The translations under genes were made by a program, and so were the position numbers. DNA of 64,000 nucleotides from an uncultured Actinomycetes bacterium (lineage in GTDB: Bacteria; Actinomycetota; UBA4738; HRBIN12): positions 145,877 to 209,876 of the forward strand of contig CAVYTE010000012.1 of the NCBI GenBank assembly GCA_963771385.1, written 5' to 3'. This document shows positions 2,503-28,726 of the stretch, one piece after another (the stretch's first letter is position 1; each line of letters opens with the position of its first letter). Under the pieces are notes generated by a model. It made no database searches, was not told the DNA's origin, and was given only the letters and a program-made list of their open reading frames with translations.

Positions 2503-3645
2503 CTACCGGCGGCTCGCGGCCCGGCAGGACGTCGGCGGTTCGGACCGCCGACCGCCCCCAGGTGAACGTGCGGACGCGATCGCGTCCCGCCGCGACCAGC
2601 CGCTCGCGAAGCGCGGCGTCGTCGAAGAGCGATCGAAGCCCGTCGCCGATCGCGGCCGTGTCGCCCGGGTCGACGAGCAGCGCCGCGTCACCGGCCACCT
2701 CGGGGAGCGAAGACGTGCTCGAGGTCAACACGGGTACGCCGGCCGAGAACCCCTCGAGCACCGGGAACCCGAACCCCTCGTAGCGCGACGGGTAGACGAG
2801 CGTGGTCGCCCCCGCGATCAGGGCCGCCTTCACGACGCCGCCGACGTACCCGGGGAGGACCACGCGACGGCGAACCGCCGCAGGAAGGCCCGCGACCTCG
2901 GCGCGCAGCGCCTCGGCCGCGTGCGGGATCCAGTTCGTCCGGCCGCCGGCGATCACCAGCCACGCGTCCACGTCACCGAGCGACGCGAACGCCTGCACGA
3001 GCGCGGACAGGTTCTTGCGTGGCTCGATCCCGCCGACGAACAACGCGTACGGTCCCTCGATCCCGAAGCTCGCTCGGACCTGCCCCACGTCGGCGGCGGG
3101 GGAGGCTCGAACGGCTCCGCGCCGTGCGGGATCACGTGGACCTCGCCCGCGACGTCGTGGCGCTCGAGGAGGTCTCGCCTCGTGCTGTCGGACGGCACGA
3201 TGACGGCGGCGGCGCGCCGGAGCCATCGGTCGAACCTCCTGCGCCACCGGGCGTCGTGGTGCGGCGCCGTGCCGGGCATCACCTCGTGCGCCAGGTCGTG
3301 CACGACGAGCACGACACCTCGGGACGACGTGGGCGGCGGCAGGAAGTTCGTCGCGAGCAGCGCATCGAAACGCAGGAGCCACTCGAGCCTCGGGACGTGG
3401 AGCCGCCACGACACCGGCTGGAACACGCGCGTCGGGAACCGGTCGGCGTGTTCGGTCAGGTTCCGGGCGCCGACGTCGTCGAAGAATCGTCGCCGCGACA
3501 GCAGGCCCTTCGGATCCAGGTACCAGGCGACGACCTCGTCGGCGGGTGCCGAGGCCGGCAGGTGCCCGACGATCTGGCGCGCGTAGTGGCCGACGCCGGT
3601 CCGCCGCGGATCGAGCGCCGGTCGCGCGTCGATCGCGAGCCGCAC
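2503..3645 (-). pseudogene. Family-4 (GT-B) glycosyltransferase, at least one frameshift and no in-frame stop as sequenced
   Basis: N-terminal domain in ORF 2953..3645 (MRLAIDARPAL..GVGHYA..VIPHGAEP). C-terminal domain in the rmlB frame (YALFVGGIEPRKN..PSRYEGFGFPVLEGFSAGVPVLTS). The break is near 3100 at a G run. The reading frame runs straight into the rmlB ATG, while a TAG at 2503-2505 sits in the adjacent frame. Confidence 0.8.
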
Positions 3646-10529: not shown

Positions 10530-13250
<2,721 letters not shown>

Positions 13251-13288
13251 CCTTCCATGCTCCCAGACACCGGATGCGATCCGACCCT

Positions 13289-13834
13289 TCAGTCGCGCCG
13301 GCGCTCCTGTTCGATCGCCGCGCGATGCGCCTTGCGCGTCTCCCGCCGGATCCGCGCCTCTCGCTGGCGGCGTTGCTCGTCGGCGCTCTCGGCCACGATC
13401 GGCGGCACCGGACGCGGCCGGCCGTCGTCATCCAGGGCCACGAACACGAGGTAGGCGCTCGAGGTGTGGATCCGGATGCCGGTCCGGATCTCCTCGGACT
13501 CGACCCGGACACCGACCTCGAGCGATGTGTTCCCCACGTCGTTCACGCTCGCCATCACCGTGATCGTGTCGCCGATGTGCGCCGGCGCGAGGAACGACAT
13601 CTCGTCCATCGACACCGTGACGCACATCCCGCCCGCGTGCTTGATCGCGGCGAGGCCGGCAGCCGTATCGACCAGCTTCATGATCACGCCCCCGTGGACG
13701 ATCCCACCGAGGTTCGTGTCCGTGACCTCCATGAGCTGCACCAAGGTGACCTGGCTCGTCGCGACGGTCTTCGCAGGTCCCACGACCGAATCGTATCCGG
13801 CGCACCGGGCCCACCGCCGGATCGTCCGTAGCAT
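13289..13834 (-). CDS. Hotdog-fold acyl-CoA thioesterase (YciA/4HBT type)
   Basis: Part of ORF 13289..14119: NLGGIVHGGVIMKLVDTAAGLAA..VTVSMDEMSFLAPAHIGD..SLEVGVRVESE. The start could instead be the GTG near 13783. Confidence 0.8.
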   Translation of the reverse strand: MLRTIRRWARCAGYDSVVGPAKTVATSQVTLVQLMEVTDTNLGGIVHGGVIMKLVDTAAGLAAIKHAGGMCVTVSMDEMSFLAPAHIGDTITVMASVNDVGNTSLEVGVRVESEEIRTGIRIHTSSAYLVFVALDDDGRPRPVPPIVAESADEQRRQREARIRRETRKAHRAAIEQERRRD

Positions 13835-13840
13835 GGGCCC

Positions 13841-14651
13841 GTGCGCCGCCCGCTCACCTCCGTCACCCTCATCGCGTTCGTCGCGATCGTCTCGCTCGCC
13901 GCGTGCACCTCGGACGACGAAGGGACGTCGGACCCGACGGCAAGCGGACCAACGGCGTCTGGATCGAACACCGGGAGCGCGCCACCCACCGGACCGTCGA
14001 CCGGGAGCGCCACACCGAGCGCGAGCGAGGAACCGGCGCCGGAACTCCAACTGCCGGCCGACGCACCCAGCTCGGTCGACGACTCCGCCGACGTCGCGCT
14101 GATCGAGGCCGGGGATCACTCGGTGCTCATCCCACCGGGGGCCGAGGACACGATCGCGATCCGTCAGACGACCCCCGACGATCCGATCGACCAGATCGCC
14201 GTGGCGTGGCGGCGCGGCTCCGACCCGTTCGCCCCCGAGGTCGGGTTCGTCGTGTGGCAGCGTTCCGATGCAGGACGACGACGCCGGCTGGCGAGCCGTC
14301 TACGCGTTCACCGACCGGCCGAGCGCGGGCGTCCTCGGCATCCGCGTCGTTCCCGCCGACCTCACCGGGGACGGCGTCGACGACCTGCTCACCGAGGAGC
14401 AGCGGGGCGGGAGCGGAGCCTGCGCCACCTGGCGGGTGATCGCCTCGGCCGCCGGGGGTGCGGCGGAGATCTACCGGCGCGAGGGCTGCGACACGGAGAT
14501 CTCGGCCGTGGACGGGGCGCTCGAGATCCGAGAGGCCGTCTTCGAGCCGGGCGACCCGCACTGCTGCCCGACCGCGTACCGGACCACCGTGCTCGAGTGG
14601 GACGGCCAGGCGTGGGCGGAGGTCTCCACCGAGGTCGAGCCCGCCCGCTAG
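13841..14651 (+). pseudogene. Lipoprotein of unknown function, one frameshift as sequenced
   Basis: MRRPLTSVTLIAFVAIVSLAAC (lipobox LAAC) followed by a Ser/Thr/Pro-rich linker. The C-terminal part (DLTGDGVDDLL, paired Cys) continues in ORF 14268..14651 after a break near 14265. It shares a frame with the next gene, which is why the ORF track shows one 1,934-aa ORF. Confidence 0.6.
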
Positions 14652-14770
14652 GCGGCGGGGACCGGGCCCCGGCCCGGCCGGACCGGTCGCCAACTCCGTG
14701 CGCCGAACGGCTTACGTCGCCCCACCCACACGCCGATACATCGAACGGTCCCAGCATCCGATCGTTCGAG

Positions 14771-17700
14771 ATGAAGGCGGGAAGTGGCTTGAGCGTTCCC
14801 CGCGGCGCCCAGCGCATGGCGCTCATCGTGCTCGCATTCGTGCTGGCCGCGGCGGCATTCGGCGCGTTCCAGCAGGCGGGCAAGGCGAGCCATGCCCTCG
14901 AGGCTGAGGCCACCGCCTCGGCCGAGCGCGCCGCGGCAGCGGTCGGAGATGCCCTCGTCCCCGAGGACCTCGCCGGGCCGGTGAGCGGCGAGCGCTACCA
15001 GTCGCTCTCGTCCGTCGTGAACGCGGGGCTCGTCGGTCCGGACGACTCCGTCACCGTCCTCAACAGCGAGGCCGTCGTCGTCTTCGCTCAGGACCGAGAG
15101 ACCATTGGACTGAAGGAGTCGCGGGCCAAGGTCGCCCGCGTCCTGTCGGCCGGGACGCAGACGGAGCTGGGCGCCGGGACGTTCAGCGTCTTCGTCCCCG
15201 TCACCGTCGACGGGCCGTCCGACATCGCGGTCGTCGACGTCGCCGGTCCGTCCGATGCGATCGAGGCCGCTCGAGGGCCATGGATCGTCGTCGCGATCGC
15301 CGCGGGCATCCTCGCGCTGCTCGTGCTCGTGTACGCGTTCGCCCAGAACGGATCGCGGGCCGCCGGGTTCGGCGACGCCATCAGTCCCTCGCGGGTGCTC
15401 GACATCGAACGCCGGCACGAGAAGGAGATGGCGGGTCTGGAGAAGACGATCGAGCGGGCGAAGGCCGATGAGGCCGGCGTCCGCAAGGAGCTCGAGAAGG
15501 TCGCCGAGGACCTGACCGCGCACAAGAAGGTATTGCGGGAGCTCGACGAGGCCGTCAACAAGACGGAGGCGCGTGCCGCCGAGGCGGAGGGGAAGCTCGC
15601 CGATACCACCGCACGCATCGCCGAATCGCAGACGCGCGCCGACCACGCCGAGAAGGGCGAGAGCGAGGCGCGAGCCAGGATCACGGCGGCCGAGTCGCGT
15701 GCTCGGGACGCGGAACGGCAGACCGCGGAGGCCAACGCGAGAGCGAGGCAGGCCGAGGAGTGGGCCGAGGATCTGGCCGCGCTCGGCGACGACCTCGAGC
15801 GGGCCGGGTCGGGCAAGGACGAGGAGTTCAAGCAGCTCCGCAACTCGCTGGTGGAGGCCAAACGCCAGGCCGCGGTCGCGCGGGACGCGAAGCGCGAGCT
15901 CGCGGACCGCGTCGCGACCCTCGAGACGACAAACCGGACGCTCGAGGCCGAACGGGAGACGCTCGCGGCGGAGCGCAGCGCGCTCGCCGGGGAACGGCAG
16001 GCGCTCGTCGCGGAACGCGAGTCGCTCGAGCAGGCGCGTGGCTCCGCCGAGGGGGAAGCCGCGGCCACACGTGAGGAGCTGCAGCACGCGCAGCAGCAGC
16101 TCGAACACGCGGTCGAGACCTCCAAGTCGCAACTGGCAACGGCACGGCGCGAGCTCGAGGAGGGTGGTGCCGAGCTCGCCGCGGCGCGGAGCGAGCTCGA
16201 GGACGCCCGCGCGCGAGAGGCGGAGATGAGCGTTCGCGTCGCGGAAGCCAAGGCCGAGGCGGAGCGGTCCAGGGGGGAGGTCGAGCGGGCCAGGGCGGAC
16301 GCCGATCGCGCCGCTACCGAGATCGCGGCGGCCAGGCTGGCCGAACAGGCGAAGAGCGCGCAACTCGCAGATGTGAGCGACCGATCCTCATCGCTCCAAC
16401 GCCAGGTCGACGAGGCCGCCGAACAGCTCCGTGAGCAGCAGGAGCGAGCCGGTGCGGCCGAGGCGAAGGTGGTCGATCTCTTCCGTCAGGTGCAGGCGCT
16501 CGAGCAGCGGCCGGACCTCAGCGCCGAGATGGAAGCGGCCATCTCCGAGACCGCCTCACTGCGGACCTCGCTCTCGGCCGCGAACGAGCGAGCGGAGGAG
16601 CTGGAGAGGGAGCTCGGGTCCACGCGCTCGGAGATGGAGGTGGCGCAGCTCGCCGGGGCCGAGGTCGCGGATCGACTGAACGAGCAACGCACCCGTGCGG
16701 ATCGAGCGGAAGCCGAGGTTGCCGAGCTCACGCAGGAGGCGGCGGAGCTCGCCGGCGTGATCGCCGAACTCGAGGCCCGGCCGGACCTGACGACGGACCT
16801 CGACACCGCGCGGGATGAGCGGAACGCGCTCGGGGCTCACCTGGAGACCGCGTCGTCCGAGCTGTCCGCGGCACGGGCGGAGCTCCTCGTCGCCCGACGA
16901 GATGCGGAAATCGTGAACACCGAGCTCGAGGCGGCCCGCGCCGAGGTCGAGGCGCGCGCGCGGCGGATCGAAGAGCTCGAGGCCCGGCCGGACCTGACGG
17001 CGGAGCTCGAGGCGGCCCGCGCCGAGGTCGGATCGGGCAGGCAGCGGATCGACGAGCTCGAGGCTCGCCCCGACCTCAGCGCGGACCTCGAGTCCGCGAA
17101 GGACGAACGACGGGCGCTCGCGGCTCGACTGGAGGCGGCCACGAGCGAGCTCGATGCTGCTCGGCGCGACATCGTTGCGGCGCAGGGAGAAGCCGAGACG
17201 TTCAAGACCGACCTCGAGGCGGCACGAGCCGAGATCGGATCGGGCAGGCAGCGGATCGACGAGCTCGAGGCCCGCCCCGACCTCAGCGCGGACCTCGAGT
17301 CCGCGAAGGACGAACGACGGGCGCTCGCGGCTCGACTGGAGGCGGCCACGAGCGAGCTCGATGCTGCTCGGCGCGACATCGTTGCGGCGCAGGGAGAAGC
17401 CGAGACGTTCAAGACCGACCTCGAGGTGGCACGAGCCGAGATCGATGCGGTGCAAGGGGATCTCGAGGCGACACGTGCGGAGGCCCAGGTCGCGCGGGCC
17501 GAGCTCGAGGCGACCCGAGCCGAAGCCGGGACGTTCGAGTCCGACCTCGAGGCGACGCGGGCTGAAGCCGAGGCAGCGAAGACCGAGCTCGAGGCGACAC
17601 GAGCCGACGCGGATGTCGTGAACCGGGATCTCGACGCAGCACGCGCCGAGATCGAGACGGTCAAAGCCGATCTCGAAGCGATGCGAGCCACCGTCGGCGA

Positions 17701-19645
17701 GACCGAAGCCAACGAGCGAGCGCTCCACGACAAGCTCCGGTCGGCGCGAGAGAAGGCCGAAGCGCGCCGGCAGAAGAACGAGGGTCTCGTGGCGGAGCTC
17801 GACGCTGTCAACGCCGCCCTGGCGAGCGACCGGGCGGAGCTCGAGGCTGCCAACGCCGCGCTCGCGAGCGACCGGGCGGAGCTCGAGCGTGTCGCGAGTG
17901 AGCTGGCGACCGCGTCGACCGAGCTCGAGCGGACGAAGGACGATCTCGAGAACACCCGTGCCCTGGCCGGAAGGACCGAGGCGGATCAGCGCACGCTGGC
18001 GGCGGAGCTACGAACCACGGCCGAGGAGGCGGAGGCACGTCGACGCGAGGACAAGAGACTTCGCGCCGAGCTCGAGTCGAGGAAGGTGGAGGAGGCGCGA
18101 CTCGCCGCCGAGCTCGAAGCGCGGGGGGTGGAGGAGGCACGACTCGCCGACGAGCTCGAAGCGCGAGGTCTCGAGGAAGCTCGACTCGCCGCCGAGCTCG
18201 AGTCGAGGAGGGTGGAGGAGGCGCGGCTCGCCGCCGAGCTCGAAGCGCGGGGGGTGGAGGAGGCACGACTCGCCGACGAGCTCGAGAGCGGGCGGGTCGA
18301 GGTGGAACGGCTCCGGGCCGAGCTCGACGCGCGCCGGGTCGAGGAAGAGCGTCTCGGCGCCGAGTTCGAGACGGGGCGCGGTGAGGTGGAACGGCTCCGG
18401 ACCGAGCTCGAGGCCGGACGCGGGGAGGTGGAGCGGCTCCGCGCCGAGCTCGACGCACGGCGTGTCGAGGAGGAACGACTCGGCAGCGAGTTCGAGGCCG
18501 GGCGCGGGGAGGCGGAGCGGCTCCGCGCCGATCACGAGGCCGGCCGCGTCGAGCTGGACAACCTGCGAGCGGAACTGGAGCTCCAGCGAGCGGAGGCGGA
18601 CGGGCTTCGCGTCGAGTCCGAGAGCGCGCGAACGAGCGTCGAACGCCTCCGAGCCGAGAGCCTCGAGCTGCTGCAGGAGAAGGATCGACTCATCGAGCAC
18701 CTGCAGAGCTCGGAGTGGGAAGCCGGATCGGAACGCGCTCGCGCGGAGGAGCTCGCCCGGCGACAGGACACGCTCCAGGCGCACGCGGACGACGTCGCTC
18801 GGAAGGCGGCGGAGGAGGCCATGGCGGCCCGCAGCCGGCTCCTCGAGACGCAGGAAACGTTGGCTCGCTTCCAGAGCGAGCTCGAACAGGTCGCGACGAA
18901 CTCGGTGTCGGCCGGGGACATGGGCCTGGACGCCGACGGCGTCCAGGGGGTCGTCGACGCCATGTCGACGGATGCGAAACGCTCGCTCTCGGCCATCTTC
19001 GGGCTCGCACGGATGATGTCTTCACAGGGAGCACCCGATGAGGGGCGGATGCTCCAACAGCTCATGTCGCAGGCTCGCCGGATGGAGCACGCCCTCACCG
19101 ACATCCTCGACGCCGACCGCCTCGCCCGAGGGGAGGTCGTCCTCAAGCGGCGCAGCACCGAGATCGACACGCTCATCCGCCGCGTCGTGCGGGAGTTCCC
19201 GGTGACGGAGGGGCGTCAGGTCGAGGTGATCGCCGAGACCGCGACGATCCAGATCGATCCGGCGCGGCTCGAACGGCTCGTGGACGACCTCCTGTCCTCC
19301 GCGATGACGCGGACGCAGCGCAACGATCGTGTCGTCCTCCGCGTGGAACGGACCGACGACGGCGTGATGCTCGCGGTCGAGGGAGGCGCGGTCTCGGGGG
19401 TCGAGGTCGGACCGGCGGCGAGCTTCCTCGCCAAGCTGCACGGCGGGTGGACGTCGGCGGAGGCGCTGCCGGGCGGGCGCGGGGTCGCGCGCGTCTTCCT
19501 CCCGAGCGTCTGGGCGCCGGGAGGCGGGCCCGAAGCAGGAACCGCCTCGGAGGGTACCGCCGACGGCTCCGATCCGGCGATCCCGGCCCCGCCGGAGCCG
19601 GACGGCGAGAGCGAGCCAGCGGATCGAGCCGAGGCGACCGCCTAG
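14771..19645 (+). CDS. 1,624-aa membrane-anchored giant coiled-coil protein with a C-terminal histidine-less, degenerate histidine-kinase-like domain
   Basis: Uninterrupted frame from ATG 14771 (alternative ATG 14816). Two hydrophobic segments (residues ~16-33 and ~171-191) bracket a ~135-aa domain. About 1,150-1,200 residues of E/A/R/L-rich sequence with nested repeats follow. From 18962 the sequence is HisKA/HATPase_c-like (STDAKRSLSAIFGL, LVDDLLSSA, FLAKLHGGW) but lacks the H-box His and N-box Asn. Confidence 0.8.
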   Translation: MKAGSGLSVPRGAQRMALIVLAFVLAAAAFGAFQQAGKASHALEAEATASAERAAAAVGDALVPEDLAGPVSGERYQSLSSVVNAGLVGPDDSVTVLNSEAVVVFAQDRETIGLKESRAKVARVLSAGTQTELGAGTFSVFVPVTVDGPSDIAVVDVAGPSDAIEAARGPWIVVAIAAGILALLVLVYAFAQNGSRAAGFGDAISPSRVLDIERRHEKEMAGLEKTIERAKADEAGVRKELEKVAEDLTAHKKVLRELDEAVNKTEARAAEAEGKLADTTARIAESQTRADHAEKGESEARARITAAESRARDAERQTAEANARARQAEEWAEDLAALGDDLERAGSGKDEEFKQLRNSLVEAKRQAAVARDAKRELADRVATLETTNRTLEAERETLAAERSALAGERQALVAERESLEQARGSAEGEAAATREELQHAQQQLEHAVETSKSQLATARRELEEGGAELAAARSELEDARAREAEMSVRVAEAKAEAERSRGEVERARADADRAATEIAAARLAEQAKSAQLADVSDRSSSLQRQVDEAAEQLREQQERAGAAEAKVVDLFRQVQALEQRPDLSAEMEAAISETASLRTSLSAANERAEELERELGSTRSEMEVAQLAGAEVADRLNEQRTRADRAEAEVAELTQEAAELAGVIAELEARPDLTTDLDTARDERNALGAHLETASSELSAARAELLVARRDAEIVNTELEAARAEVEARARRIEELEARPDLTAELEAARAEVGSGRQRIDELEARPDLSADLESAKDERRALAARLEAATSELDAARRDIVAAQGEAETFKTDLEAARAEIGSGRQRIDELEARPDLSADLESAKDERRALAARLEAATSELDAARRDIVAAQGEAETFKTDLEVARAEIDAVQGDLEATRAEAQVARAELEATRAEAGTFESDLEATRAEAEAAKTELEATRADADVVNRDLDAARAEIETVKADLEAMRATVGETEANERALHDKLRSAREKAEARRQKNEGLVAELDAVNAALASDRAELEAANAALASDRAELERVASELATASTELERTKDDLENTRALAGRTEADQRTLAAELRTTAEEAEARRREDKRLRAELESRKVEEARLAAELEARGVEEARLADELEARGLEEARLAAELESRRVEEARLAAELEARGVEEARLADELESGRVEVERLRAELDARRVEEERLGAEFETGRGEVERLRTELEAGRGEVERLRAELDARRVEEERLGSEFEAGRGEAERLRADHEAGRVELDNLRAELELQRAEADGLRVESESARTSVERLRAESLELLQEKDRLIEHLQSSEWEAGSERARAEELARRQDTLQAHADDVARKAAEEAMAARSRLLETQETLARFQSELEQVATNSVSAGDMGLDADGVQGVVDAMSTDAKRSLSAIFGLARMMSSQGAPDEGRMLQQLMSQARRMEHALTDILDADRLARGEVVLKRRSTEIDTLIRRVVREFPVTEGRQVEVIAETATIQIDPARLERLVDDLLSSAMTRTQRNDRVVLRVERTDDGVMLAVEGGAVSGVEVGPAASFLAKLHGGWTSAEALPGGRGVARVFLPSVWAPGGGPEAGTASEGTADGSDPAIPAPPEPDGESEPADRAEATA
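16493..17454 (+). repeat. In-frame long tandem repeats (69-aa / 207-bp unit) inside the giant gene
   Basis: The motif LE(A/Q)RPDL recurs with R codons at 16508, 16778, 16985, 17066 and 17273. Unit 17041-17247 is repeated at 17248-17444 with 2 mismatches in my base-by-base comparison. Confidence 0.85.
18068..18613 (+). repeat. 13 in-frame tandem copies of a 42-bp (14-aa) unit ELExRxVEEARLAx
   Basis: Units start at 18068, 18110, 18152 and so on up to 18572. Units 2 and 5 are identical, and units 1/4, 7/10 and 8/11 are near-identical, giving a 126-bp higher-order period. Confidence 0.85.
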
Positions 19646-21921
19646 ACCATCACGGCGGTGCTTCGGCGCCGTCCGGTCTTCTGCACGACGATCGACGCGG
19701 GGAACTGGTCCTTGATGCGCTCCGCGTGAGTGATCACGAACAACTGGTGGAACCGACCCGCCAACATCCCGAGCGCCCGGACCATCAGGTCCTTGCGCTC
19801 CTCGTCGAGCGAACCGAGCACCTCGTCGAGCACCATCAACCCGACGTCGGCACCGGAGACGCGCGACAGGTGCGTGGAGATGGCGACGCGGAGCGCGAGG
19901 TTCGCGAGGTCGATCTCCGAGCCCGAGAACCGATCGATCGGGAAGTACGCGTCACCGTCCGCGATCCGGATCTCGAGGCTCTCCTCGTCCACGCGCAGGT
20001 CGTCGTACGCGTGGTTCGTGAGCTCGCGGAACAACGCCTCGGCCTCCCGCGAGAGCTCGGGACCGACGCGCGCGACGAGATGATCGCGGAAGCCGTCCAG
20101 CAGCATCGCCACCCGTTCGACGTACCGGGCGTCGGAGCGGAGGTCATCGACGCGAGACGCGATCTCCTTGGCCTGTCCGAGCGCCCCGGCGAGCTCGCTC
20201 CGCTTGAGCTCCGCGCGTTGCAGCTCGACGCCCGCCGAGCGTTCGGCCTCGACGGCCTCCTCGACCGCCTGCTCGGCGCGTTGCAGGTCCTCGGTCGAGC
20301 GTGCGTGTTCGGCCGGGTCGAACGAGATCGCGCTCGCCTCGTCCGTCAGCTTCGCGAGCTCGTCCTCGAGCACCGCGATCCGAGCGTCCGCGGCGGACAG
20401 ATCCGTGCGGAGCTGCGCAGCGAAGCCCCGGTGCGCACCCAGCTCCGCGATCCGCTCCCCGAGGACCCGGGCCCGCTCGGCTCCTGCGCGGAGCTCGTTG
20501 ACGTCGGGCGGGACCCCCTCGAACGGCTGGGCGAGGGGCGCGAGCTCGGCGCGCATCGCGTCGAGCTGTTCCGTCAGCCGTGTGCGCTGCTCGCCGGCGC
20601 GCCGAGCGTCTTCGGCTGCCGAGATCGCCGCGTCGAGCGCCTTCACGACCTTCGCCAGCGCGGTCTGCGCACGTTCGGCGGAGGCCGACGCGTCGGCGGC
20701 CGTCCGTTTCGCGCTCGCGACCTCGGCCTTGCAATGCTTCACGTACGCGGCGAAGTCCTCGAGCGGCCGGCCGCACGTCGGACACGGTTGCGTCGGGTCG
20801 GCTTCGGCGGCCCGGTCCAGACGCGCCTGAGCCTCCTCGAGCGCCGAGACGCGTTGGTTGAGCTCGGCCTGCGCGCCCGCCGCCGCGGCCTGCGACTCCC
20901 CGTGCGCCGCCTGCGCCTGCCCGAGCGCGTCGAGGGCGGCCTCGGCTTCGACCTCGGGGAGCGAGATCAGCTGCAACTCCACCGCATGCGCCCGGTCGGT
21001 CGCCTCGACGAAACGCAGGCCGAGCCGCAGTCGCTCGTCCGCGTCGCCGAACCCGGCGAGCTCGGACTCGAGCTCCGGAAGTGCCTCGAGCTCGGCCGCG
21101 AGCCGCTCGAGCCGCTCCCCCAGCTCGTCGCGCTCGGTCAGCCGCTCGTCACGGCGCTCGACCTTCTCGGTCAGGAGCGCGCCGAGCCGCTCGATGCGTT
21201 CTCGCGCCCGGTCGATCCGCCGAAACGCCTCCGTGGCCGCCTTGGCCTGCTTCGTCGTCGCCTTCCGCGCCTCCTGCGCGTCCTTCGCGACGCGCTTCGC
21301 CTCGGCCGCCGCCTCCCCGGCGTCCTTCAGTTCCGCCTCGAGCGCGGCCAGATCCGGCACGGCCTCCTGGAGCTGGGCGGCGTTCTCCTTGGCCGCGCGG
21401 GCCTGCCGGCGGGCGGCGGTGCGCGCGTCGTCGACCGGCTTGATGCCGAGCAAGCGCAGCGCCATCTCGACGCGTTCGCCGCGCCGCAGGTCCGAGAACG
21501 CGTCGAGCTGCTTCTGCTCCGCGTACACGGAAGCTCGGAACACGCGCAGGTCCATGTGGAGGATCCTGGCGATCTCCTCGTTCACCTCGGTCGTCCCCGA
21601 CGCGAACGGGCGGGTCCCGACGAAGAGCTCGGCCTCCGGCGCATGGCCCCTCCCCTTGATGGCACGCCGGACCTCGAACTGCTGTCCGGCGTGCTCGAAC
21701 ACGAGACGCACCAGGCAGTCGGACAGGACGCCGTGGGTGCGGATCTCCTGTCGCTTGGTCCGCGCGGCCTCGGCCCCGTAGCAGGCGAACGCGATCGACT
21801 CCACGAGCGTGGACTTCCCGCTGCCGTTCTCGCCGAAGATCCCGATCACCCGAGCCGGCAGCTCGAGGTCGAGCTCCTCGAACACCCGGTAGTTGCGCAA
21901 CGACAGCTCGAGGACCCTCAC
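19642..21921 (-). CDS. sbcC: SbcC/Rad50-family DNA double-strand-break repair ATPase with zinc hook
   Basis: GTG 21921 within ORF 19642..22710. Walker A GENGSGKSTL, long coiled coil with central PCPTCGRPL hook, signature RFSGSE, Walker B LMVLDEVLGSLD, and ITH near the C-terminus. The start overlaps the sbcD stop. Confidence 0.9.
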   Translation of the reverse strand: MRVLELSLRNYRVFEELDLELPARVIGIFGENGSGKSTLVESIAFACYGAEAARTKRQEIRTHGVLSDCLVRLVFEHAGQQFEVRRAIKGRGHAPEAELFVGTRPFASGTTEVNEEIARILHMDLRVFRASVYAEQKQLDAFSDLRRGERVEMALRLLGIKPVDDARTAARRQARAAKENAAQLQEAVPDLAALEAELKDAGEAAAEAKRVAKDAQEARKATTKQAKAATEAFRRIDRARERIERLGALLTEKVERRDERLTERDELGERLERLAAELEALPELESELAGFGDADERLRLGLRFVEATDRAHAVELQLISLPEVEAEAALDALGQAQAAHGESQAAAAGAQAELNQRVSALEEAQARLDRAAEADPTQPCPTCGRPLEDFAAYVKHCKAEVASAKRTAADASASAERAQTALAKVVKALDAAISAAEDARRAGEQRTRLTEQLDAMRAELAPLAQPFEGVPPDVNELRAGAERARVLGERIAELGAHRGFAAQLRTDLSAADARIAVLEDELAKLTDEASAISFDPAEHARSTEDLQRAEQAVEEAVEAERSAGVELQRAELKRSELAGALGQAKEIASRVDDLRSDARYVERVAMLLDGFRDHLVARVGPELSREAEALFRELTNHAYDDLRVDEESLEIRIADGDAYFPIDRFSGSEIDLANLALRVAISTHLSRVSGADVGLMVLDEVLGSLDEERKDLMVRALGMLAGRFHQLFVITHAERIKDQFPASIVVQKTGRRRSTAVMV

Positions 21922-23050
21922 ACGGTCTCCCCGCGCGCGTCGGACAGGAACCCGGCGCCGATCGACACGACCCGCTCGCGTTCGAGCCCCGCCAGATCCT
22001 GCAGCTCGACGTACGACGTCCACTCCCGCTCGAGCGAACCGATCGTGGGACCGCCCTGAATCGCGAGCGCCTCGGCGCCGAAGTCCGGCTCGACCTGGAC
22101 CCAGATCGCGCTCGGGACGGCCTCGTGGAACTGCTCGCCCGCGATCTGTCGGAACGACGCCGGGTCCACCTCGTTCAGGTAGACCCGCACGATCGCGCGC
22201 TCGGGGATCCCGCGCGCCGCGCGCTCGACCGCGTCGACGAGCTCGCCGGCCGACAGCCCGGCGGCCGCGACGCTCACGGTGGCGAGCGGACGCTCGTGCG
22301 GGTTCTCCACGTGCTCGACCGTCCCCGCGTCGGTGTCGATCACGACGAGCCCCTTCGCGGCCTCGGGCGTGTCCGCGTACGAGAACGTGTCGGTCGAGCC
22401 CGCGTACCACGTGCGCTTCGAGACCTTCTGGTGCGCGTGGTAGTGGCCGAGCACGACGAGGTCGAACCCGCGTGTGGAACGCCGCCTCCTCGACCTCGAG
22501 CTCGTTGATGTCGGGATAGATCGCGAGCCGGCAGCGAGGTGAGCGCGACGTGCGCGAGCAGCAGGTTCGTGCGGTCGGGCCGGACCGCGGCGGCCGCGGC
22601 CGCGAGCTGCTCGCGAAGCTCCTCGACCGACAGCGTCTGCGGAACGGCGTGAACCGCGACCCCGGCCAGTTCGGTGGCCATCGCCTCCATGCGCCAGGCG
22701 AACGCGACACCGGGGAACACCCGCTCCAGCGCGTCGTACGGCGAGCCGGTTCCGCGGACGCGGGGCGTGTCGTGGTTGCCGCTGATCGCGGCGCCTCGCA
22801 GGCCGGCGTCGGTGAGACGTTGGAGCCCGCCGAGCACGTGCGCGAAGGTCCGATAGGTCGGCCTCGCGTGATCGAAGATGTCTCCGAGCCACAGGAAGCC
22901 GTCGGGTTCCTGCCGGATCGTCTCGTCCACCGCCCAGGCGAACGAGCGGAGGAAGTCCTCCTCGCGGAGGTTCCGGCCCTCGTCGTCCCGCAGGTGCGCG
23001 AGGTGCGTACGCCCGAGGTGGGCGTCCCCGAGCGCGACGAGCCTGCTCAT
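21918..23050 (-). pseudogene. sbcD: SbcD/Mre11-family nuclease, two frameshifts as sequenced
   Basis: Phosphoesterase motifs GDAHLG, WLGDIFDH and SGNHD (ORF 22340..23050), then IYPDINELEVEEAAF (third frame), then DLVVLGHYHAH (ORF 21918..22892). Breaks near 22525 and 22470. Confidence 0.85.
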
Positions 23051-23072
23051 CGGCGCGTGCGCGTGCCTCGCG

Positions 23073-24643
23073 TCACTCCGCGAACCCCTGCGCTCCGCCC
23101 GAGGGCCGCGGCGGCAACGGCGAGGGACCCTGTACCGACTTCAGGTACTCCTCGTAGAGGTAGACCATCGCCGGCAGGGCGAACGGCGAATCCAGGTTCG
23201 TCACGATCGCCTCGCCCGGCATGAGGGTCTGGATCTCGGGACCGAGGTCCGTGATGTCCTGCTTCGAGCTCCCGCGCAGGATCGTGCGGTCCTTCTCGTC
23301 GGCGAGCCCGAGGATGAAGAACGTGTTGAACTGCGACAGCAGCTCGTCGTCGATCAGCTTCGGCTGCTGGCTGACCGCGCACAGGCCCGACCTTGAACTT
23401 CCGCCCCTCCCGCGCCACCCGGGGGAAGACGTTCTCGTCCGAGCGCGTCGCGCGCGAGAGCACGCGCTGGGCCTCCTCCAGCGCGATCGAGCGTCGGTGG
23501 CAGGGCGGCGAACCGCTCGCGGTCGTCCAGGAAGACCGAGCCGTACGCGTCGAGCACGCGCCGGGTGATGACCGATGCGACGAGGATCTCCTCCATGGAC
23601 GACAGACCGCTCGTGTCGACGAGCACCGAGTAGCCGTCCATCAGCTCGTCGACGATGCGCTCGGACAGCGACGGCTGGGACGGATCGCGCGAGATGCACG
23701 GCATGTCCAAGATCCGCTGGGCGCGACGCTGGATCACCTGGAGGGTGCTCGTCGCGACGCCCGAGCTGCTCGGCGAGGTCGCTCACGTCCTGTTCCTCGC
23801 CCACGCGAACGATCCACTCCTCGTGGAAGAAGCGGATCAACCGGTAGATCGCGTCCTCCTGCGGGTGGCTCCAGTCGTATGCCGTCTGCAGGTCGCCCAG
23901 CGTGAGCTCGCCGAGCGAGAGGCGGAGCGCGGTGGCCCCGGCGCCGGCCGCTCGCGTCGCGTAGACGCGCAGGCGGTCGGCGGCCCATGGGTGTTCGCGC
24001 AGGCCGCGGCGGATCCCGCTCCCACCTTCGAGGTACTCGCCGTGCGGGTCGAACAACAGGCACGCGTACCGGCCCTGCGAGGACAGGATCTGGCCCGCGA
24101 GCACCTTCATGAGGTTCGACTTGCCCATCCCGGTCGTGGCGAAGACCCCGACGTGCGACGTGAGCGTCTCGCCCTTGATGCCGACCTCGAGGTCGATCGT
24201 GTCTTCGCCCGACCGGAGCAGCCCGACCCGCAGGTCGCCCATCCGCTCGTGGAGGAAGGCGAAGTCCTGCGGCGTCGGCGCCGTGACCCGGGCGAACTGC
24301 GCGGGCAGCGACTTCGGCTTGCGGAACTCCCCCGCCGGGTCGATGTAGCCCAGCGGCTGGCACGTCGCCACCTTGTAGAGGCGCTGCTCCGGGTCGTGCA
24401 GCGTGTACGGGGAACCGGCGGCGTCGCCGGCCATGTACGCGCCGGCCGTGCGCTCGGGCCATCCCGGGATCGGAGGACTCCGAGCCGTACGCCACCTGGA
24501 TCACGCGGAACAGGAACCGGCGCGCGCGTTCGGCGTCCTCGGCCGACCAGCAGCTCACCGAGGAACAGGTCCGTCCCGTAGAAGGAGCGGAAGGTCGCCT
24601 CCAGGACGCTGCGGCCGAAGATCCGGCCCTTGTACGCGCTCAC
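23073..24643 (-). pseudogene. herA: HerA-type hexameric DNA helicase/translocase ATPase, about five frameshifts as sequenced
   Basis: Walker A HVGVFATTGMGKSNLM; LLFDPHGEY; C-terminal VSQQPKLIDDELLSQFNTFFILGL and PGEAIV. The pieces lie in ORFs 24107..24880, 23734..24558, 23073..24434, 23354..23737 and 23047..23463. The GTG start overlaps the nurA stop (GTGA). Confidence 0.8.
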
Positions 24644-25743
24644 CGGTTCAGGACCTCGTGGAAGTCCTGGAACAGCACCTCGATGTCGTCTTCCGACATG
24701 CCCCGCCGTGAGAGCGCCTCGCGGAAGGAGCGGCGAACGTCCACCACGTCGTAGCCGGTGACCCTCGCCGCCTGGTGGGCCCGCGCGAGGGGGTAGGGGT
24801 AGCCGACGAACGCGGGATCGTCGGCGAGCCCGGCGAGCCGACCGAGCACCTCTCCGCGGGGGCGGGCCCGTGCGCGACATCGACGCGGAACGCGAACGGA
24901 GCGGTCGGTGCCAGGTGCGCGACGAAGATGTCCCCGACGTACAGCCGCGCGAACACCGGATCGGTCGAGATCCGGGCGCTCCATGCCGACGCTCCCCGTT
25001 CGCGGTCGCCGCGACGTTTCAGCAACGTGACGAGCGGAGCGTTGCGACCCCAGTAGAGCGTGGAGGCCTTCACGACACCGGCGAGCGACACGCCGCGTTC
25101 GACGGCCTCCGCGTGGACGCGCCGGACCACGACGGCGGGAACGAGCGGCCCGCCGTGCAGCGAACCGTCCACCAGGACCAGATCGCCAGAGGCCGCTTCG
25201 CGGACCGTCCGAGCGACCTCGGCCCACTCGCCCCACTCACGGAGCGCGTCGACGGGCCGCGGCATCTCGGGCAACCGCTCGGGCTCCGCTGCCGCACAGC
25301 TCGCGCAGGACGGAGCGAGCGAGCTCGGCCATCTCCTCGGGGGGAAGCGCGCGGACCGAGAGCGGCGGCGTCTCCACCCGTTCGGTCACGCCGGCCTCGA
25401 ACCGCACGCGCGCGGCCCGGTACGCCGCCACCTGGAACGAACGACCGTCGGCGACCACGCACGACCCGCCGTCGACCGCCCAGACGCGGCCGGGATCGGC
25501 GGGCTCCACCGGGACCAGCTCGAACGCGTCGGGGTGGCCCTGGACCACGAGCGCCTCGTCGAGGGAGGCCTGGCCCTCCATCACCCGGATGTCCGAGCCG
25601 GGGCGCTCGAGCAGGTTCACGACGAAGGACGCGGCCTCGTCGAGCTGCCCGCGCTCGACGATGTCGAGGTTGAGCACGCCTGGGTCCGCGCTTCCGAGCA
25701 CGGCCGAAGCGTAGCGGAGGCTTCGGACAGGGCCCGGAAGCAC
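24640..25743 (-). pseudogene. nurA: NurA-family 5'-3' nuclease, two frameshifts as sequenced
   Basis: VWAVDGGSCVV, DLVLVDGSLHG, SLAGVVKAS and GYPYPLARAHQAARV spread over ORFs 25237..25743, 24648..25274 and 24640..25236. Breaks near 25290 and 24865. The GTG start follows GAGGAGGAAGG. Confidence 0.75.
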
Positions 25744-25899: not shown

Positions 25900-27132
25900 A
25901 TGGTGGGCTCCCTAGCCAGACGGCATCGCCGACCCCTCTGGGGGGCCCTGGCCTTCCTGCTGGTCGTCGCGATCGCCGTCTCCATGTACAGCGCGTCGAC
26001 GGCGAAGGACGCCGCGATCGCCGAGGCGGAGATCGACGCGAAGCTCACCGCACAGACGGAGCTCGCGACGTTGCTCGAGCCCCGCGACCTGGAAACACCG
26101 ATCTTCAACGAACGCGCCGACGAGCTCACCGCCCTCATCGACACGCAGATCACCTCCGTCAGTCGGATCGACGAGGTCCGGATCTTCTCCGCGATCGGAC
26201 GGATCCTCTACGCGGACGACCCGACGATCGTCGGGACGCGACCGTCCTACCTTCGTGAGCTGACCTTCGAGGTCGCGAACGGCGAGGCGCAGACGCATGC
26301 GCGCGGCTCCCTGCTCCAGACGTTCGTCCCGATCTGGATCTCCCCCGACGGCACGGTGGCCGTCGCGGAGATGTCGCAGGCGCTCGCACCGATCACCTCG
26401 GCGGCGGCGGCGGGATGGAACACGATCGCGCTGATCTGCGCGGTGCTCCTGCTCGGAGCCATCGTGATGATCGTCGTGACGAGCCTCGCGCAGCCAACGC
26501 AGCCTTCCAACCTGCCGGTCCACGTGTACGCGCCCGTGTCCGTCCCGTCCGGGGCGGAGGGGACCCAGGCGCCGGCGGTCGTGGCGGTGGACGCTCCGCT
26601 GAACCAGCAGCCCGGGTTCCGCGAGATCGACGAGCTGCGACGGACGGCCGAGAGCCGCGCCCGGGCCAGCGAGCAGGACCTCCGGGGCGTGCGCACGCAG
26701 CTGAAGGATGCGCTCGCCCAGGTCGCGCTGCTCGAGGAGGAGCTCACGATCCAGGGCACCGGCCAACAGGATTGCGAGGCACTGCGCGACCAGTTCCGCG
26801 AGTCGAGCGAGCGGCTGAACCTGATCGAGATGGAGAACACGGCGCTGCGCGAGCGGCTGCACCTGCGTGAGCAGGAGCTCGAGGAGGTGCGGGCGCGCCT
26901 GCGATCCTCGCAGACCGCGCCGGCGGGGATGAGCGAGCTGCGACAGCGCCTCGAAGGCGCGGAGGAACGCGCCTCACAGATGGCGAGCGAGATGAAACGG
27001 ATCGAGACGGAGCTCGACGACACGACGACCCGCCTCCACATGTCGAGCCTGACGGAAGCGCTCCGGGAAGCCGGACACGTCGACCCCGAGATGGAGGACC
27101 AGGACTCGCCGCCGATCGTGGTGGATCGGTAG
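25900..27132 (+). CDS. Membrane protein: TM, sensor-like ectodomain, TM, then ~200-aa coiled coil; paralogue of the N-terminal part of the giant protein
   Basis: ATG after GAGAGAGGAA. TM segments LWGALAFLLVVAIAVSMY and WNTIALICAVLLLGAIVMIVV. The ectodomain aligns by eye with the giant protein (VRIFSAIGRILYADD / VTVLNSEAVVVFAQD; FVPIWISPDGTVAVAEM / FVPVTVDGPSDIAVVDV). Confidence 0.7.
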   Translation: MVGSLARRHRRPLWGALAFLLVVAIAVSMYSASTAKDAAIAEAEIDAKLTAQTELATLLEPRDLETPIFNERADELTALIDTQITSVSRIDEVRIFSAIGRILYADDPTIVGTRPSYLRELTFEVANGEAQTHARGSLLQTFVPIWISPDGTVAVAEMSQALAPITSAAAAGWNTIALICAVLLLGAIVMIVVTSLAQPTQPSNLPVHVYAPVSVPSGAEGTQAPAVVAVDAPLNQQPGFREIDELRRTAESRARASEQDLRGVRTQLKDALAQVALLEEELTIQGTGQQDCEALRDQFRESSERLNLIEMENTALRERLHLREQELEEVRARLRSSQTAPAGMSELRQRLEGAEERASQMASEMKRIETELDDTTTRLHMSSLTEALREAGHVDPEMEDQDSPPIVVDR

Positions 27133-27172: not shown

Positions 27173-28726
27173 ATGGCCGACACGATCGCGATGATGCAGG
27201 GCCGCGAAGCGAGCGAACCGGGCGACCGGGCGACCGAGGACGGCGGCCTCATCAGCCGCGTCTCGGCCGCCGGGTACCAGGTCGCGCAGGCGGTCGACGG
27301 ACTCGAGCAGGCGGTTGGACTGCTCCGCGCCGCCGAGGAGCTGGCTCGAGACGCGGACGCACGCCGCGGCGTCGCAGAGCAGCGGCTCGCGGGCGCGCAG
27401 ACCGAGGTCGCCGAGCTCACCGACATGCTCACGATCGCCCGCGCCGCGCAGACCGACACGGACGAACGCGCACGCGCGGCAGAGCAGCGGCTCGCGACCT
27501 TGCAGGGCGAGATCGAACAGCTGACGGACATGGTCCGGGTCGCCCGCGCCGCCCAGGCAGACGCGGACGAACGCGCACGCGCCGCGGACCAGCGGTTCGC
27601 CGGCGTCCGCGGGGAGATCGAGGAGCTCACCGGGTTGGTCGCCGCGGCACGCGCCGCCCAGGCCGACGCGGACGAACGCGCACGCGCGGCCGACCAGCGG
27701 TTCGCCGGCGTCCGCGGGGAGATCGAGGAGCTCACCGGGTTGGTCACCGCGGCACGCGCCGCGCAGGCCGAGTCCGACGAGCGCGCCCGGCTGGCCGACG
27801 AGCAGGCGCGGCTCTCCGACGAGCGCGCCCGGCTGGCCGAGGACCGCTTCGAGCGGGTGTCCGACCGAACCACGGCGATGGAGCTCGCCCTCGGCGATCT
27901 CGAGGACCGCTGGCGCTCCGCCGAGACGACCCCGCAGGTCACGCTGGTGGGCGAACGTGACGAGCTGCAGGAGGCGGTCGCGGCGGAGATCCGCCGGCCG
28001 CTGACCTCGATCCTCGGGCTCACGCTCGCCCTGAAGCAGGCGGACGTGAAGGCGAACGACGGCAAGCACATGGTGCGCCAGCTGGGGACGAACGCGAAGC
28101 GCCTGGAGCGGCTCGTCGAGCAGATGCTCGACCTCGACAAGATCGCGAACGGCACGTACGAGCCCAAGCGACGCCGCTCCGACCTGGCGGCGCTCGTCGG
28201 TCGCGTCGCCGAGGAGACGCCCGACATCGCGAACCGCGACCTGAAGATCGCCGGCGAGCACGTGGCGATCGAGGTCGACCCCGGCCTCACCGAGCAGATG
28301 GTCGAGACGCTGCTGTCCAACGCCGGTCGCCGGACCGCGCCGGGAGGGAAGATCTGGATCACGGTCGTCCCCGAAGCGGACGGGGCGGTCATCGCGGTCG
28401 ACGACGCCAGCGCCGATGCGCTGCCGGCGATGCCGAGCGACAGGGAAGCGGCCGGCGCTCGGTCGCAGCGGGCGCGGGCCTCCGGCCTCCCGCTCCTCTC
28501 CCGTCTGGCCGAGCTGCACGGCGGCCGGGCGTGGGTCGAGGAGCGCGAGGGGGGCGGTGCGTCGTTCCGGGTCTTCCTTCCCGGCGGGTCCTCGAGCGAG
28601 TCGGAGGTCACCGCGGTCGACCTGATCGAAGACGTCGACGAGCTGCCGTTCGAAGCCGATCGGGTCGAGGGGGCGCTCCGCGAGCTGTCGAGCTTCGACG
28701 ACCTGTCCGGCGGGGTCGCGATCTAG
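27173..28726 (+). CDS. Cytoplasmic coiled-coil protein with a histidine-less histidine-kinase-like C-terminal domain; paralogue of the C-terminal part of the giant protein
   Basis: 35-aa repeats are followed by AAEIRRPLTSILGLTLAL, an H-box with Ala at the His position. Then LLSNAGRRTAPGGKIWI, a degenerate G1 box (DDASAD), and SGLPLLSRLAELHGGRAWVEE..FRVFLP. Confidence 0.75.
   Translation: MADTIAMMQGREASEPGDRATEDGGLISRVSAAGYQVAQAVDGLEQAVGLLRAAEELARDADARRGVAEQRLAGAQTEVAELTDMLTIARAAQTDTDERARAAEQRLATLQGEIEQLTDMVRVARAAQADADERARAADQRFAGVRGEIEELTGLVAAARAAQADADERARAADQRFAGVRGEIEELTGLVTAARAAQAESDERARLADEQARLSDERARLAEDRFERVSDRTTAMELALGDLEDRWRSAETTPQVTLVGERDELQEAVAAEIRRPLTSILGLTLALKQADVKANDGKHMVRQLGTNAKRLERLVEQMLDLDKIANGTYEPKRRRSDLAALVGRVAEETPDIANRDLKIAGEHVAIEVDPGLTEQMVETLLSNAGRRTAPGGKIWITVVPEADGAVIAVDDASADALPAMPSDREAAGARSQRARASGLPLLSRLAELHGGRAWVEEREGGGASFRVFLPGGSSSESEVTAVDLIEDVDELPFEADRVEGALRELSSFDDLSGGVAI
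27350..27769 (+). repeat. Four in-frame tandem copies of a 105-bp (35-aa, five-heptad) unit
   Basis: Units start at 27350, 27455, 27560 and 27665 (D[AT]DERARAA[ED]QR[LF]A..EI[E]ELT..ARAAQA). The last two units differ at only a few bases. Confidence 0.8.

Follow-up and report, generated by a model that had tools for sequence, protein, structure and literature searches.

To our knowledge, pseudokinases derived from histidine kinases are known from a handful of studied cases (DivL, RetS and PsmA), each of which exposed non-catalytic wiring of bacterial signalling or cell organisation. RetS of Pseudomonas aeruginosa is a sensor pseudokinase that acts by binding: it blocks GacS through a heterodimer between the DHp (dimerisation and histidine phosphotransfer) domains of the two proteins. 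In Spo0B and ChpT, a dimeric DHp four-helix bundle is joined to an alpha/beta domain that resembles the CA (catalytic and ATP-binding) domain of kinases and has lost its ATP lid. Among bacterial coiled-coil proteins, TipN and EzrA have an N-terminal membrane anchor and the coiled coil of Scy exceeds 1,000 residues; such proteins are used as landmarks or scaffolds. DivL of Caulobacter crescentus, a dead kinase, still works as an allosteric signal integrator (PMC4211667). PsmA of Streptomyces venezuelae acts with coiled-coil polarisome proteins; its residue at the acceptor His position varies among orthologues, its ATP-lid region does not allow ATP to bind, and it has lost the phosphatase motif (E/DxxT/N following the His; PMC12963549). 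Here we analyse a giant gene, encoding a protein of 1,624 residues, in a stretch of 64,000 nucleotides (hereafter the window) from an uncultured Actinomycetes bacterium (assembly GCA_963771385.1, contig CAVYTE010000012.1, positions 145,877 to 209,876, forward strand). The protein has an extracytoplasmic sensor domain between two transmembrane (TM) helices, a very long coiled-coil stalk, and a C-terminal head with the fold of a histidine kinase and without its catalytic motifs.

The preliminary description of the gene, made from the letters of the sequence without database searches, had recognised a HisKA/HATPase_c pattern at the C-terminus. Profile and fold searches bear this out. Matches to Pfam were below threshold (HisKA, E 4e-4; HATPase_c, E 0.15), full-length NCBIfam kinase models matched the head at E 1e-10, and a profile of the family searched against the PDB recovered HK853 (1.8e-12), DivL (2e-10) and RetS (4e-9). 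The AlphaFold model of the head (mean predicted local distance difference test, pLDDT, of 74.7) consists of a helical hairpin and an alpha/beta domain, i.e., the DHp and CA folds of a HisKA sensor kinase, and its best Foldseek matches are DivL (4q20, E 4e-14) and HK853 (range of E, 4e-14 to 1e-12), with RetS also matched. The motifs of the kinase are altered throughout. The SHDLRTPL of canonical kinases reads STDAKRSL, with Thr1400 in place of the acceptor His; the phosphatase motif is lost, since the residues from this position read T-D-A-K-R, with Arg at +4; the N box has changed from NLLxNA to DLLSSA, with Ser1510 in place of Asn; and G1 has changed from VEDxGxG to VEGGAVS, so that neither a G1 nor a G2 box is present. 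Only 20 residues separate G1 from the LHGGW strand, compared with 44-45 in canonical kinases, a deletion of about 24 residues that removes the ATP lid. In the profile alignment, residues 182-218 of HK853 shrink to 11, and the model shows a loop of 7 residues. Judged by these alignments, the head lacks the Mg-binding Asn, G1, G2, the whole ATP lid, the acceptor His and the phosphatase motif. The losses of the H, N and G boxes noted at first sight were thus confirmed, and the lid deletion adds to them.

The catalytic losses are shared by the family. We surveyed 25 genome loci and 78 metagenome loci, plus database proteins. All matches come from uncultured Actinomycetota (one contig is labelled Thermoleophilaceae) and none has an informative name; no characterised homologue or curated family was found for the giant protein, and literature searches for coiled-coil histidine pseudokinases, or for HerA/NurA with a histidine kinase in Actinobacteria, gave no report on this family. 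A HMMER scan of 1.84 billion representative sequences with the profile of the sensor domain returned 447 proteins, many of which have 713-1,274 residues and the same layout of sensor, stalk and head. Every one of the 25 genome and 78 metagenome loci is lid-less, with a stub of 19-24 residues where the region is complete, against the canonical 44-45. The acceptor position is occupied by T, L, V, M, I, K, N or A in nearly all members, and by T, L, V or M in the orthologues of the window gene; the canonical boxes are not carried. A His at this position was found only in a small cluster made of two database proteins (P0167 and P0185) and one locus (L069, 2-2830), which read LSHDAR[KR]SL and are also lid-less. 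Even so, no part of the protein is better conserved than the head: orthologues share 60-74% identity there and 35-46% in the sensor domain. The protein thus has the marks of a pseudokinase: the kinase fold is kept, the catalytic loss is conserved among orthologues, and the dead domain is under purifying selection. This agrees with the preliminary proposal that it is not a working two-component kinase, but a pseudokinase or docking head placed far from a sensor-like domain at the membrane.

The origin of the family is indicated by a canonical relative of 491 residues, P0255. It has the sensor domain in common with the family (E 1.9e-9); its H box reads SHELRTPL, and it has the N-box Asn, a lid of 44 residues and a connector of 35 residues between the second TM helix (TM2) and DHp. 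By its sequence, this protein points to an ordinary PDC-sensor kinase as the ancestor of the family. Canonical PDC-sensor HisKA kinases (CitA, DcuS, WalK and P0255) share with the giant protein the TM-PDC-TM topology and the DHp and CA folds; they differ in having intact catalytic motifs and 35 residues between TM2 and DHp, instead of 1,200, and P0255 is encoded in an unrelated genomic context.

The comparison with the pseudokinases and lid-less proteins introduced above reveals partial likenesses. DivL is also derived from HisKA, membrane-anchored and devoid of the acceptor His, and acts by binding DivK~P. It differs by a Tyr where the His would be, several PAS domains and a CA of full length, lacks both an extracytoplasmic PDC sensor and a long coiled coil, and is an alphaproteobacterial protein with about 22% sequence identity to the giant protein. 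RetS, which is among the sequence and fold matches, likewise combines a periplasmic sensor with a non-functional kinase core that uses DHp contacts, and by analogy a His-less paralogue encoded near the giant gene might serve as its DHp partner. RetS is, in contrast, a hybrid kinase with receiver domains, a region of seven TM helices, a DISMED2 sensor and a lid-bearing CA, and has no long stalk. Spo0B and ChpT share the DHp and the lid-less CA-like domain; they retain the conserved His on the first DHp helix, where the window protein has Thr, shuttle phosphate, and are small, soluble and without sensor or stalk. PsmA is, like the giant protein, actinobacterial and derived from a kinase, and its role, next to coiled-coil proteins, is that of a scaffold or interaction partner (PMC12963549). 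Found only in Streptomycetaceae, it is hybrid kinase-like with a receiver domain and has neither a TM-PDC-TM sensor nor a giant coiled coil; the two proteins are likened by their features, and orthology between them is not expected.

At the other end of the protein, hydropathy recovered the two hydrophobic segments first seen by eye, and three basic residues before the first TM helix (TM1) indicate an N-in topology. The N-terminal 210 residues match no Pfam or NCBIfam family, including the Pfam Cache models, and a sequence search of the PDB with the N-terminal profile returned only chance matches to TM helices. A single-sequence homologue search with the N-terminal domain gave 1 match, and the profile search was dominated by a family of paralogues of about 420 residues. 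The AlphaFold model of the domain, built with 48 homologues, has a pLDDT of 88.9; in it, a long N-terminal helix leads to a PAS-like sheet of five strands and then to an exit helix. Foldseek matched it to CitA, DcuS, WalK, KinD and the ligand-binding domains of chemoreceptors with probability 1.0 and target-normalised TM-scores of 0.55-0.69. A long helix and a PAS-like five-stranded sheet between two TM helices place it in the PDC/Cache class. As modelled, the 135 residues between the TM helices, which had been called sensor-like, are a genuine sensor-type domain outside the membrane.

The cytoplasmic stalk makes up 72% of the protein. Its composition (residues 200-1400: A 21%, E 18%, R 13%, L 10.5%, D 6%, S 5%, T 5%) is dominated by the six residues E, A, R, L, D and T, which the preliminary description took to be almost its only constituents; at about 74% of the total, this was somewhat overstated. 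The heptad register is constant in the runs 214-325, 442-581, 585-664, 674-737, 768-836 and 837-1343, the last spanning 507 residues. The stalk has five prolines before residue 1377, all in the central hinge zone (Table 1), and each coincides with a heptad register shift of +1. Tandem Repeats Finder (TRF) detected DNA periods of 21, 42, 84 and 126 nt (7, 14, 28 and 42 aa), 81 nt (27 aa) and 207 nt (69 aa); among these is an array of the RVEEARLAAELEAR type. The earlier periods of 14 and 69 residues were therefore recovered, and that of 35 was not found. The former is a multiple of the heptad, as had been supposed, whereas the latter is one residue short: units of 27 and 69 residues fall one short of 28 and 70 because each holds one ARPDL break. 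The stalks of the window protein and of a close relative (L001, see below) differ by whole units of 27 and 69 residues, including the number of units in the 207-nt tandem duplication, and the copy number of the 69-aa and 14-aa units in the window may itself be off by one. Across the family, the distance between TM2 and DHp ranges from 299 to 1,200 residues (624 to 1,200 among same-locus orthologues), and the stalk of the window protein is the longest.

The pattern of charges informs on how two stalks would pair. In residues 837-1343, position a is Leu in 44% of cases, e is basic in 55% and g is acidic in 81%. Acidic g and basic e positions would allow g-e' salt bridges in a parallel in-register dimer, whereas an antiparallel homodimer would oppose like charges; the stalk thus fits a parallel, in-register, two-stranded homodimer. 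The mid-stalk prolines prompted us to consider a stalk folded back on itself in antiparallel fashion, which is disfavoured by this same charge pattern and by the unequal lengths of the arms. As a coiled coil rises by about 0.15 nm per residue, the stalk would measure about 170 nm if straight, with a longest unbroken rod of about 75 nm. It is not the continuous stalk, on the order of 150 nm or more, that was first considered: five proline register shifts interrupt it, and a non-helical linker follows before the head. This linker of 11-12 residues (NSVSAGDMGLDA, residues 1377-1388) has no helix and a pLDDT below 50 in the AlphaFold model, and is variable among orthologues. The Pfam scan found neither a HAMP nor an S-helix module in the giant protein.

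Some matches of the giant protein reflect the composition of its coiled coil and were rejected as identities. The NCBIfam matches to SMC (E 3.6e-31, 108 bits against a cut-off of 567 bits), which might have suggested an SMC, Rad50 or MukB protein, span only coiled-coil residues 694-1013. An SMC-type protein has two halves of an ABC ATPase head with Walker A and B motifs, one on either side of an antiparallel coiled coil that bears a hinge or hook; the giant protein lacks this organisation, and its parallel e/g charge pattern also speaks against an antiparallel pairing of the SMC type. The PADLOC matches to JetC and LmuB lie inside the stalk and reflect coiled-coil composition; at its two ends the giant protein has a PDC sensor and a kinase fold. 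TipN, EzrA, Scy and FilP showed no sequence relationship to it; none of them has an extracytoplasmic sensor or a kinase-like head, and Scy is built on a 51-residue repeat rather than on plain heptads.

Several observations show that the long frame is a genuine gene. It is free of stop codons from ATG 14771 to TAG 19645, as initially reported, the start agrees with the N-termini of the orthologues, and along its entire length the GC content is 0.80-0.91 at third codon positions (GC3) and about 0.48 at second positions, which is the coding signature of a genome with 72% GC. The frame remains open back to 13841 because a lipoprotein gene begins there in the same frame. Compared with an intact orthologue, this gene is frameshifted in the window and truly ends at 14651; 13841-14770 is therefore read-through that lies outside the giant gene, and excluding it, as had been done, was correct. 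A close relative of the window is found on a 2.77-Mb contig of a metagenome-assembled genome of an uncultured Actinomycetes (L001/L003), whose DNA is 94-95% identical. Many neighbouring genes had been described as broken, and indeed frameshifts interrupt aconitase, the lipoprotein, sbcD, herA (about four times) and nurA (twice) in the window (10533-14651 and 21921-25743); in L001 these genes are intact. The window has no such damage in the giant gene, sbcC and the paralogue genes. L001 shows the reverse pattern, with intact neighbours and a giant gene split by frameshifts into pieces of 1,021 and 505 codons. (The C-terminus of a 483-aa paralogue is also broken in L001.) The broken genes of both genomes are best read as clustered indels of long-read assemblies rather than as pseudogenes. 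In independent assemblies of unrelated samples, made from Illumina or long reads, the orthologues at the same locus have frames of 1,146-1,657 codons from stop to stop. Finally, the ratio of non-synonymous to synonymous substitution rates (dN/dS) against L001 is 0.10-0.33 across regions: 0.25 for the sensor, 0.10-0.21 for four stalk segments, 0.11 for the segment directly before DHp and 0.32 for DHp plus CA. Purifying selection acts on every part of the giant protein.

Taken together, we think that the giant protein is probably a catalytically dead descendant of a PDC-sensor HisKA kinase that now acts by binding, as a scaffold or tether, a mode of action for which DivL and PsmA are precedents. 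On the evidence of its motifs, the head would be unable to autophosphorylate, to transfer phosphate or to dephosphorylate a regulator, and would be retained as a dimeric docking surface for a partner. Candidate partners are a receiver-like protein encoded elsewhere, a kinase-like DHp such as that of the neighbouring paralogue, or a protein of the nurA-herA-sbcD-sbcC cluster. An extended stalk would place the head as much as about 170 nm away from the membrane, and one bent at the proline hinges would bring it nearer. A fixed ruler, which had been one of the initial suggestions, is unlikely because stalk length varies four-fold, and this variation, together with the hinges and the floppy linker, also makes it unlikely that signals travel from sensor to head along the helices. 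More probably, the sensor domain determines the place or the time of the protein's engagement at the envelope. Some points weigh against the scaffold or tether. The partner of the head stands at the level of candidates. The dimeric and parallel geometry comes from the sequence pattern and from kinase precedent, the AlphaFold models being monomers of the two termini, and that of the C-terminus is of moderate confidence. The cluster that keeps the His resembles Spo0B and ChpT and, going by its sequence, could mark a residual capacity for phosphotransfer. The host is an uncultured organism.

The genes around the giant gene provide a further lead. At the orthologous locus the order is aconitase, 4HBT, lipoprotein, giant gene and sbcC, the last gene of a convergent nurA-herA-sbcD-sbcC cluster. 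The giant gene and sbcC overlap by 4 bp at their stop codons (19642-19645, and likewise 11515-11518 in L001), which leaves no room for an intergenic terminator. Adjacency to the nuclease cluster was found in 42 of the 78 metagenome loci, and across the family it takes three forms: the gene is convergent with sbcC in the window clade (17 genome loci and 15 metagenome loci), co-directional and 100-200 bp downstream of sbcC in others (L022, L025, L029, L030, L032 and about 22 metagenome loci), and divergent from nurA in still others (L024, L026, L033, L051-53, L064 and L081). The clusters themselves are of two types, mutually undetectable by tblastn. The second type, a highly divergent set of NurA-like, HerA-like, SbcD and SbcC genes (L029, 3292-9800; L032, 2531-8893; L025, 1253-7600), occupies the same chromosomal locus in related genomes; its NurA matches Pfam at E 0.0017, and its 578-aa ATPase has no Pfam match and weak HerA matches in PADLOC. 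All family loci with a cluster share a neighbourhood that runs from aconitase and 4HBT to thiolase/acyl-CoA dehydrogenase and FtsH. A subgroup with the H-box M[SA]MDAQKTI (L056, L088, L095, L101 and L112) is found at the same locus with no cluster within 5-7 kb upstream, and in L101 the family gene lies directly between 4HBT and thiolase. In the metagenome sample, this subgroup rules out a constant association with the nuclease cluster. The adjacency is thus a lead, short of a demonstrated functional link.

This lead underlies the first of the other explanations, namely that the giant protein is a dedicated membrane-anchored accessory of the NurA-HerA-SbcD-SbcC (Mre11/Rad50-type) machinery. 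Its dead head would dock on a protein of the cluster, and the whole protein would anchor either the machinery or the chromosome at the envelope, or relay to the machinery a cue received there. The recurrence of the adjacency in three arrangements and with two cluster types argues for this, as does the location of the canonical relative P0255, which is not beside such a cluster. Yet the shared chromosomal neighbourhood means that the adjacency may be synteny inherited within one lineage, the M[SA]MDAQKTI subgroup keeps the gene in place with no cluster in the 5-7 kb upstream, and the PADLOC matches of the giant protein are those of a generic coiled coil. A PADLOC run that covered the giant protein and the two nuclease clusters detected no specific defence system; its matches were of the generic HerA and ABC-ATPase kind. 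On balance we regard the accessory role as unlikely. Less likely again is its extension to the family as a whole, in which these proteins would be the partners, equipped with an envelope sensor, of a NurA-HerA-Mre11/Rad50-type machine, the head docking on the machine or on the chromosome through a stalk of up to about 170 nm. If true, this widespread lineage of uncultured soil Actinomycetota would have a physical link between its envelope and the processing of double-strand breaks or the handling of the chromosome.

The protein could instead be a long-range transmembrane signalling device, in which a ligand of the PDC domain alters the binding between head and partner through the coiled coil, as in a reversed or allosteric pseudokinase of the DivL kind. 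The sensor domain is conserved and well folded, the head is conserved, and TM2 leads straight into the coiled coil, as it does in signalling kinases; DivL provides the precedent of an allosteric integrator (PMC4211667). This is difficult to reconcile with a stalk that varies from 299 to 1,200 residues and gains or loses repeats even between 94%-identical genomes, with the five register shifts in its middle, with the lack of a HAMP or S-helix module, and with a variable non-helical linker just before DHp, where signalling kinases have a continuous helix. We find such signalling rather improbable.

To the same degree, we doubt that the protein is cytoskeletal or lattice-forming, in the style of Scy, FilP, crescentin, TipN or EzrA, with the head as a stable C-terminal dimerisation cap. 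The weight of the stalk in the protein and the purifying selection that it endures are in line with this idea; TipN and EzrA are membrane-anchored landmark coiled coils, and PsmA works with coiled-coil polarisome proteins. But the most conserved region is the head, and the remnant of CA is kept in every member, beyond what a dimerisation cap needs.

It is highly improbable that the protein is a cryptic phosphotransfer protein of the Spo0B/ChpT kind, or is phosphorylated on another residue: a DHp with a lid-less CA is the architecture of Spo0B and ChpT, and P0167, P0185 and L069 keep the acceptor His, but the window protein has Thr and its orthologues T, L, V or M at a position that varies and is mostly hydrophobic, and there are no receiver genes nearby. 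As for the long frame being an assembly artefact of collapsed or expanded repeats, or a decaying pseudogene, the many frameshifted genes of the window and the near-identical tandem repeats of the stalk might suggest it, but the intact orthologues of similar length, the low dN/dS in every region and the coding-type GC3 throughout make it scarcely credible.

Beyond the cluster, the window holds other genes that may relate to the giant protein (Table 1). The lipoprotein (268 aa) has a linker rich in Ser, Thr, Pro and Gly and a weak FG-GAP match; in the window clade it adjoins 4HBT and lies directly upstream of the giant gene, and L004-L019 and L025 carry it at the corresponding position. The pairs LpqB-MtrB and YycH/I-WalK suggest, by analogy, that it may be a partner of the PDC domain outside the membrane. 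Downstream of nurA lies a pair of paralogue genes, which is missing from several orthologous loci and is found as a fused single gene in P0179 and P0180. The product of the first belongs to the robust family of proteins of about 420 residues and is 24-27% identical to the N-terminal domain of the giant protein. The head encoded by the second, in which the His is replaced by Ala, keeps the N-box Asn and has degenerate G1 and G2 boxes and a near-normal lid (39 residues). At the P0180 locus (L033), the nuclease/ATPase cluster contains two insertions, a 199-aa HEAT-repeat protein (2630-3229, minus strand) and a protein of 367 aa with no recorded Pfam match. Receiver domains (CheY, OmpR and NarL queries, tblastn, E <= 0.01) and other kinases were not found in the 64-kb window, although a missing nearby response regulator is weak evidence, as orphan kinases exist. 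Scans of the window also gave zero tRNA genes and zero Rfam families at the gathering threshold.

Table 1. Features of the giant gene and of its neighbours in the window (positions are those of the window).
Feature	Position	Strand	Description
Giant gene, complete coding sequence	14771..19645	+	1,624 aa plus stop; membrane-anchored coiled-coil pseudo-histidine-kinase
TM1	14816..14869	+	Residues 16-33; hydropathy, AlphaFold helix 11-61
Extracytoplasmic PDC/Cache-like sensor domain	14870..15280	+	Residues 34-170; AlphaFold and Foldseek
TM2	15281..15343	+	Residues 171-191; hydropathy, AlphaFold helix 162-191
Cytoplasmic coiled-coil stalk	15383..18898	+	Residues ~205-1376, ~1,170 residues; heptad register scan
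Central hinge zone	16511..17278	+	P581, P671, P740, P767 and P836, each in an ARPDL-type motif
207-nt (69-aa) tandem duplication	17006..17444	+	2.1 copies, 97% identical; TRF
Heptad-multiple repeat array	18062..18558	+	42/84/126 nt (14/28/42 aa); TRF
Short linker	18899..18931	+	Residues 1377-1387; between stalk and DHp helix 1
DHp helical hairpin	18932..19126	+	Residues 1388-1452
H-box remnant STDAKRSL	18965-18988	+	Thr1400 (18968-18970) at the phospho-acceptor position
Degenerate CA (HATPase_c-like) domain	19151..19504	+	Residues 1461-1578; Ser1510 (19298-19300) for the N-box Asn
Pro/Gly/Asp/Glu/Ala-rich C-terminal tail	19523..19642	+	Residues 1585-1624; predicted disordered, pLDDT 31-39
Upstream lipoprotein gene	13841..14651	+	Syntenic at all orthologous loci; frameshift near 14271-14275 in the window
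Convergent nurA-herA-sbcD-sbcC cluster	19642..25743	-	sbcC ~19657-21921, sbcD 21921-23050, herA 23076-24643, nurA 24643-25743
Paralogue part 1	25900..27132	+	410 aa; TM, PDC domain, TM, coiled coil
Paralogue part 2	27173..28726	+	517 aa; coiled coil and histidine-kinase-like head, AAEIRRPL (His to Ala)

The giant protein thus represents an uncharacterised family of histidine-kinase pseudokinases whose coiled-coil insertion is extreme and plastic in evolution. Taken alone, each ingredient of the protein has precedents. Its function is guesswork while the hosts are uncultured, and the frequent adjacency to NurA-HerA-SbcCD is a concrete lead that can be tested. More than 100 loci have wholly lost catalysis and yet retained the sensor outside the membrane, and the connector of 35 residues found in the canonical relative has been stretched into a coiled coil of 300-1,200 residues, which changes in length by gain and loss of heptad-multiple repeats. 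The family is therefore a test case for the use of a kinase fold after its chemistry is lost, for how far sensor and output can be separated, and for the use that bacteria make of very long membrane-anchored coiled coils.

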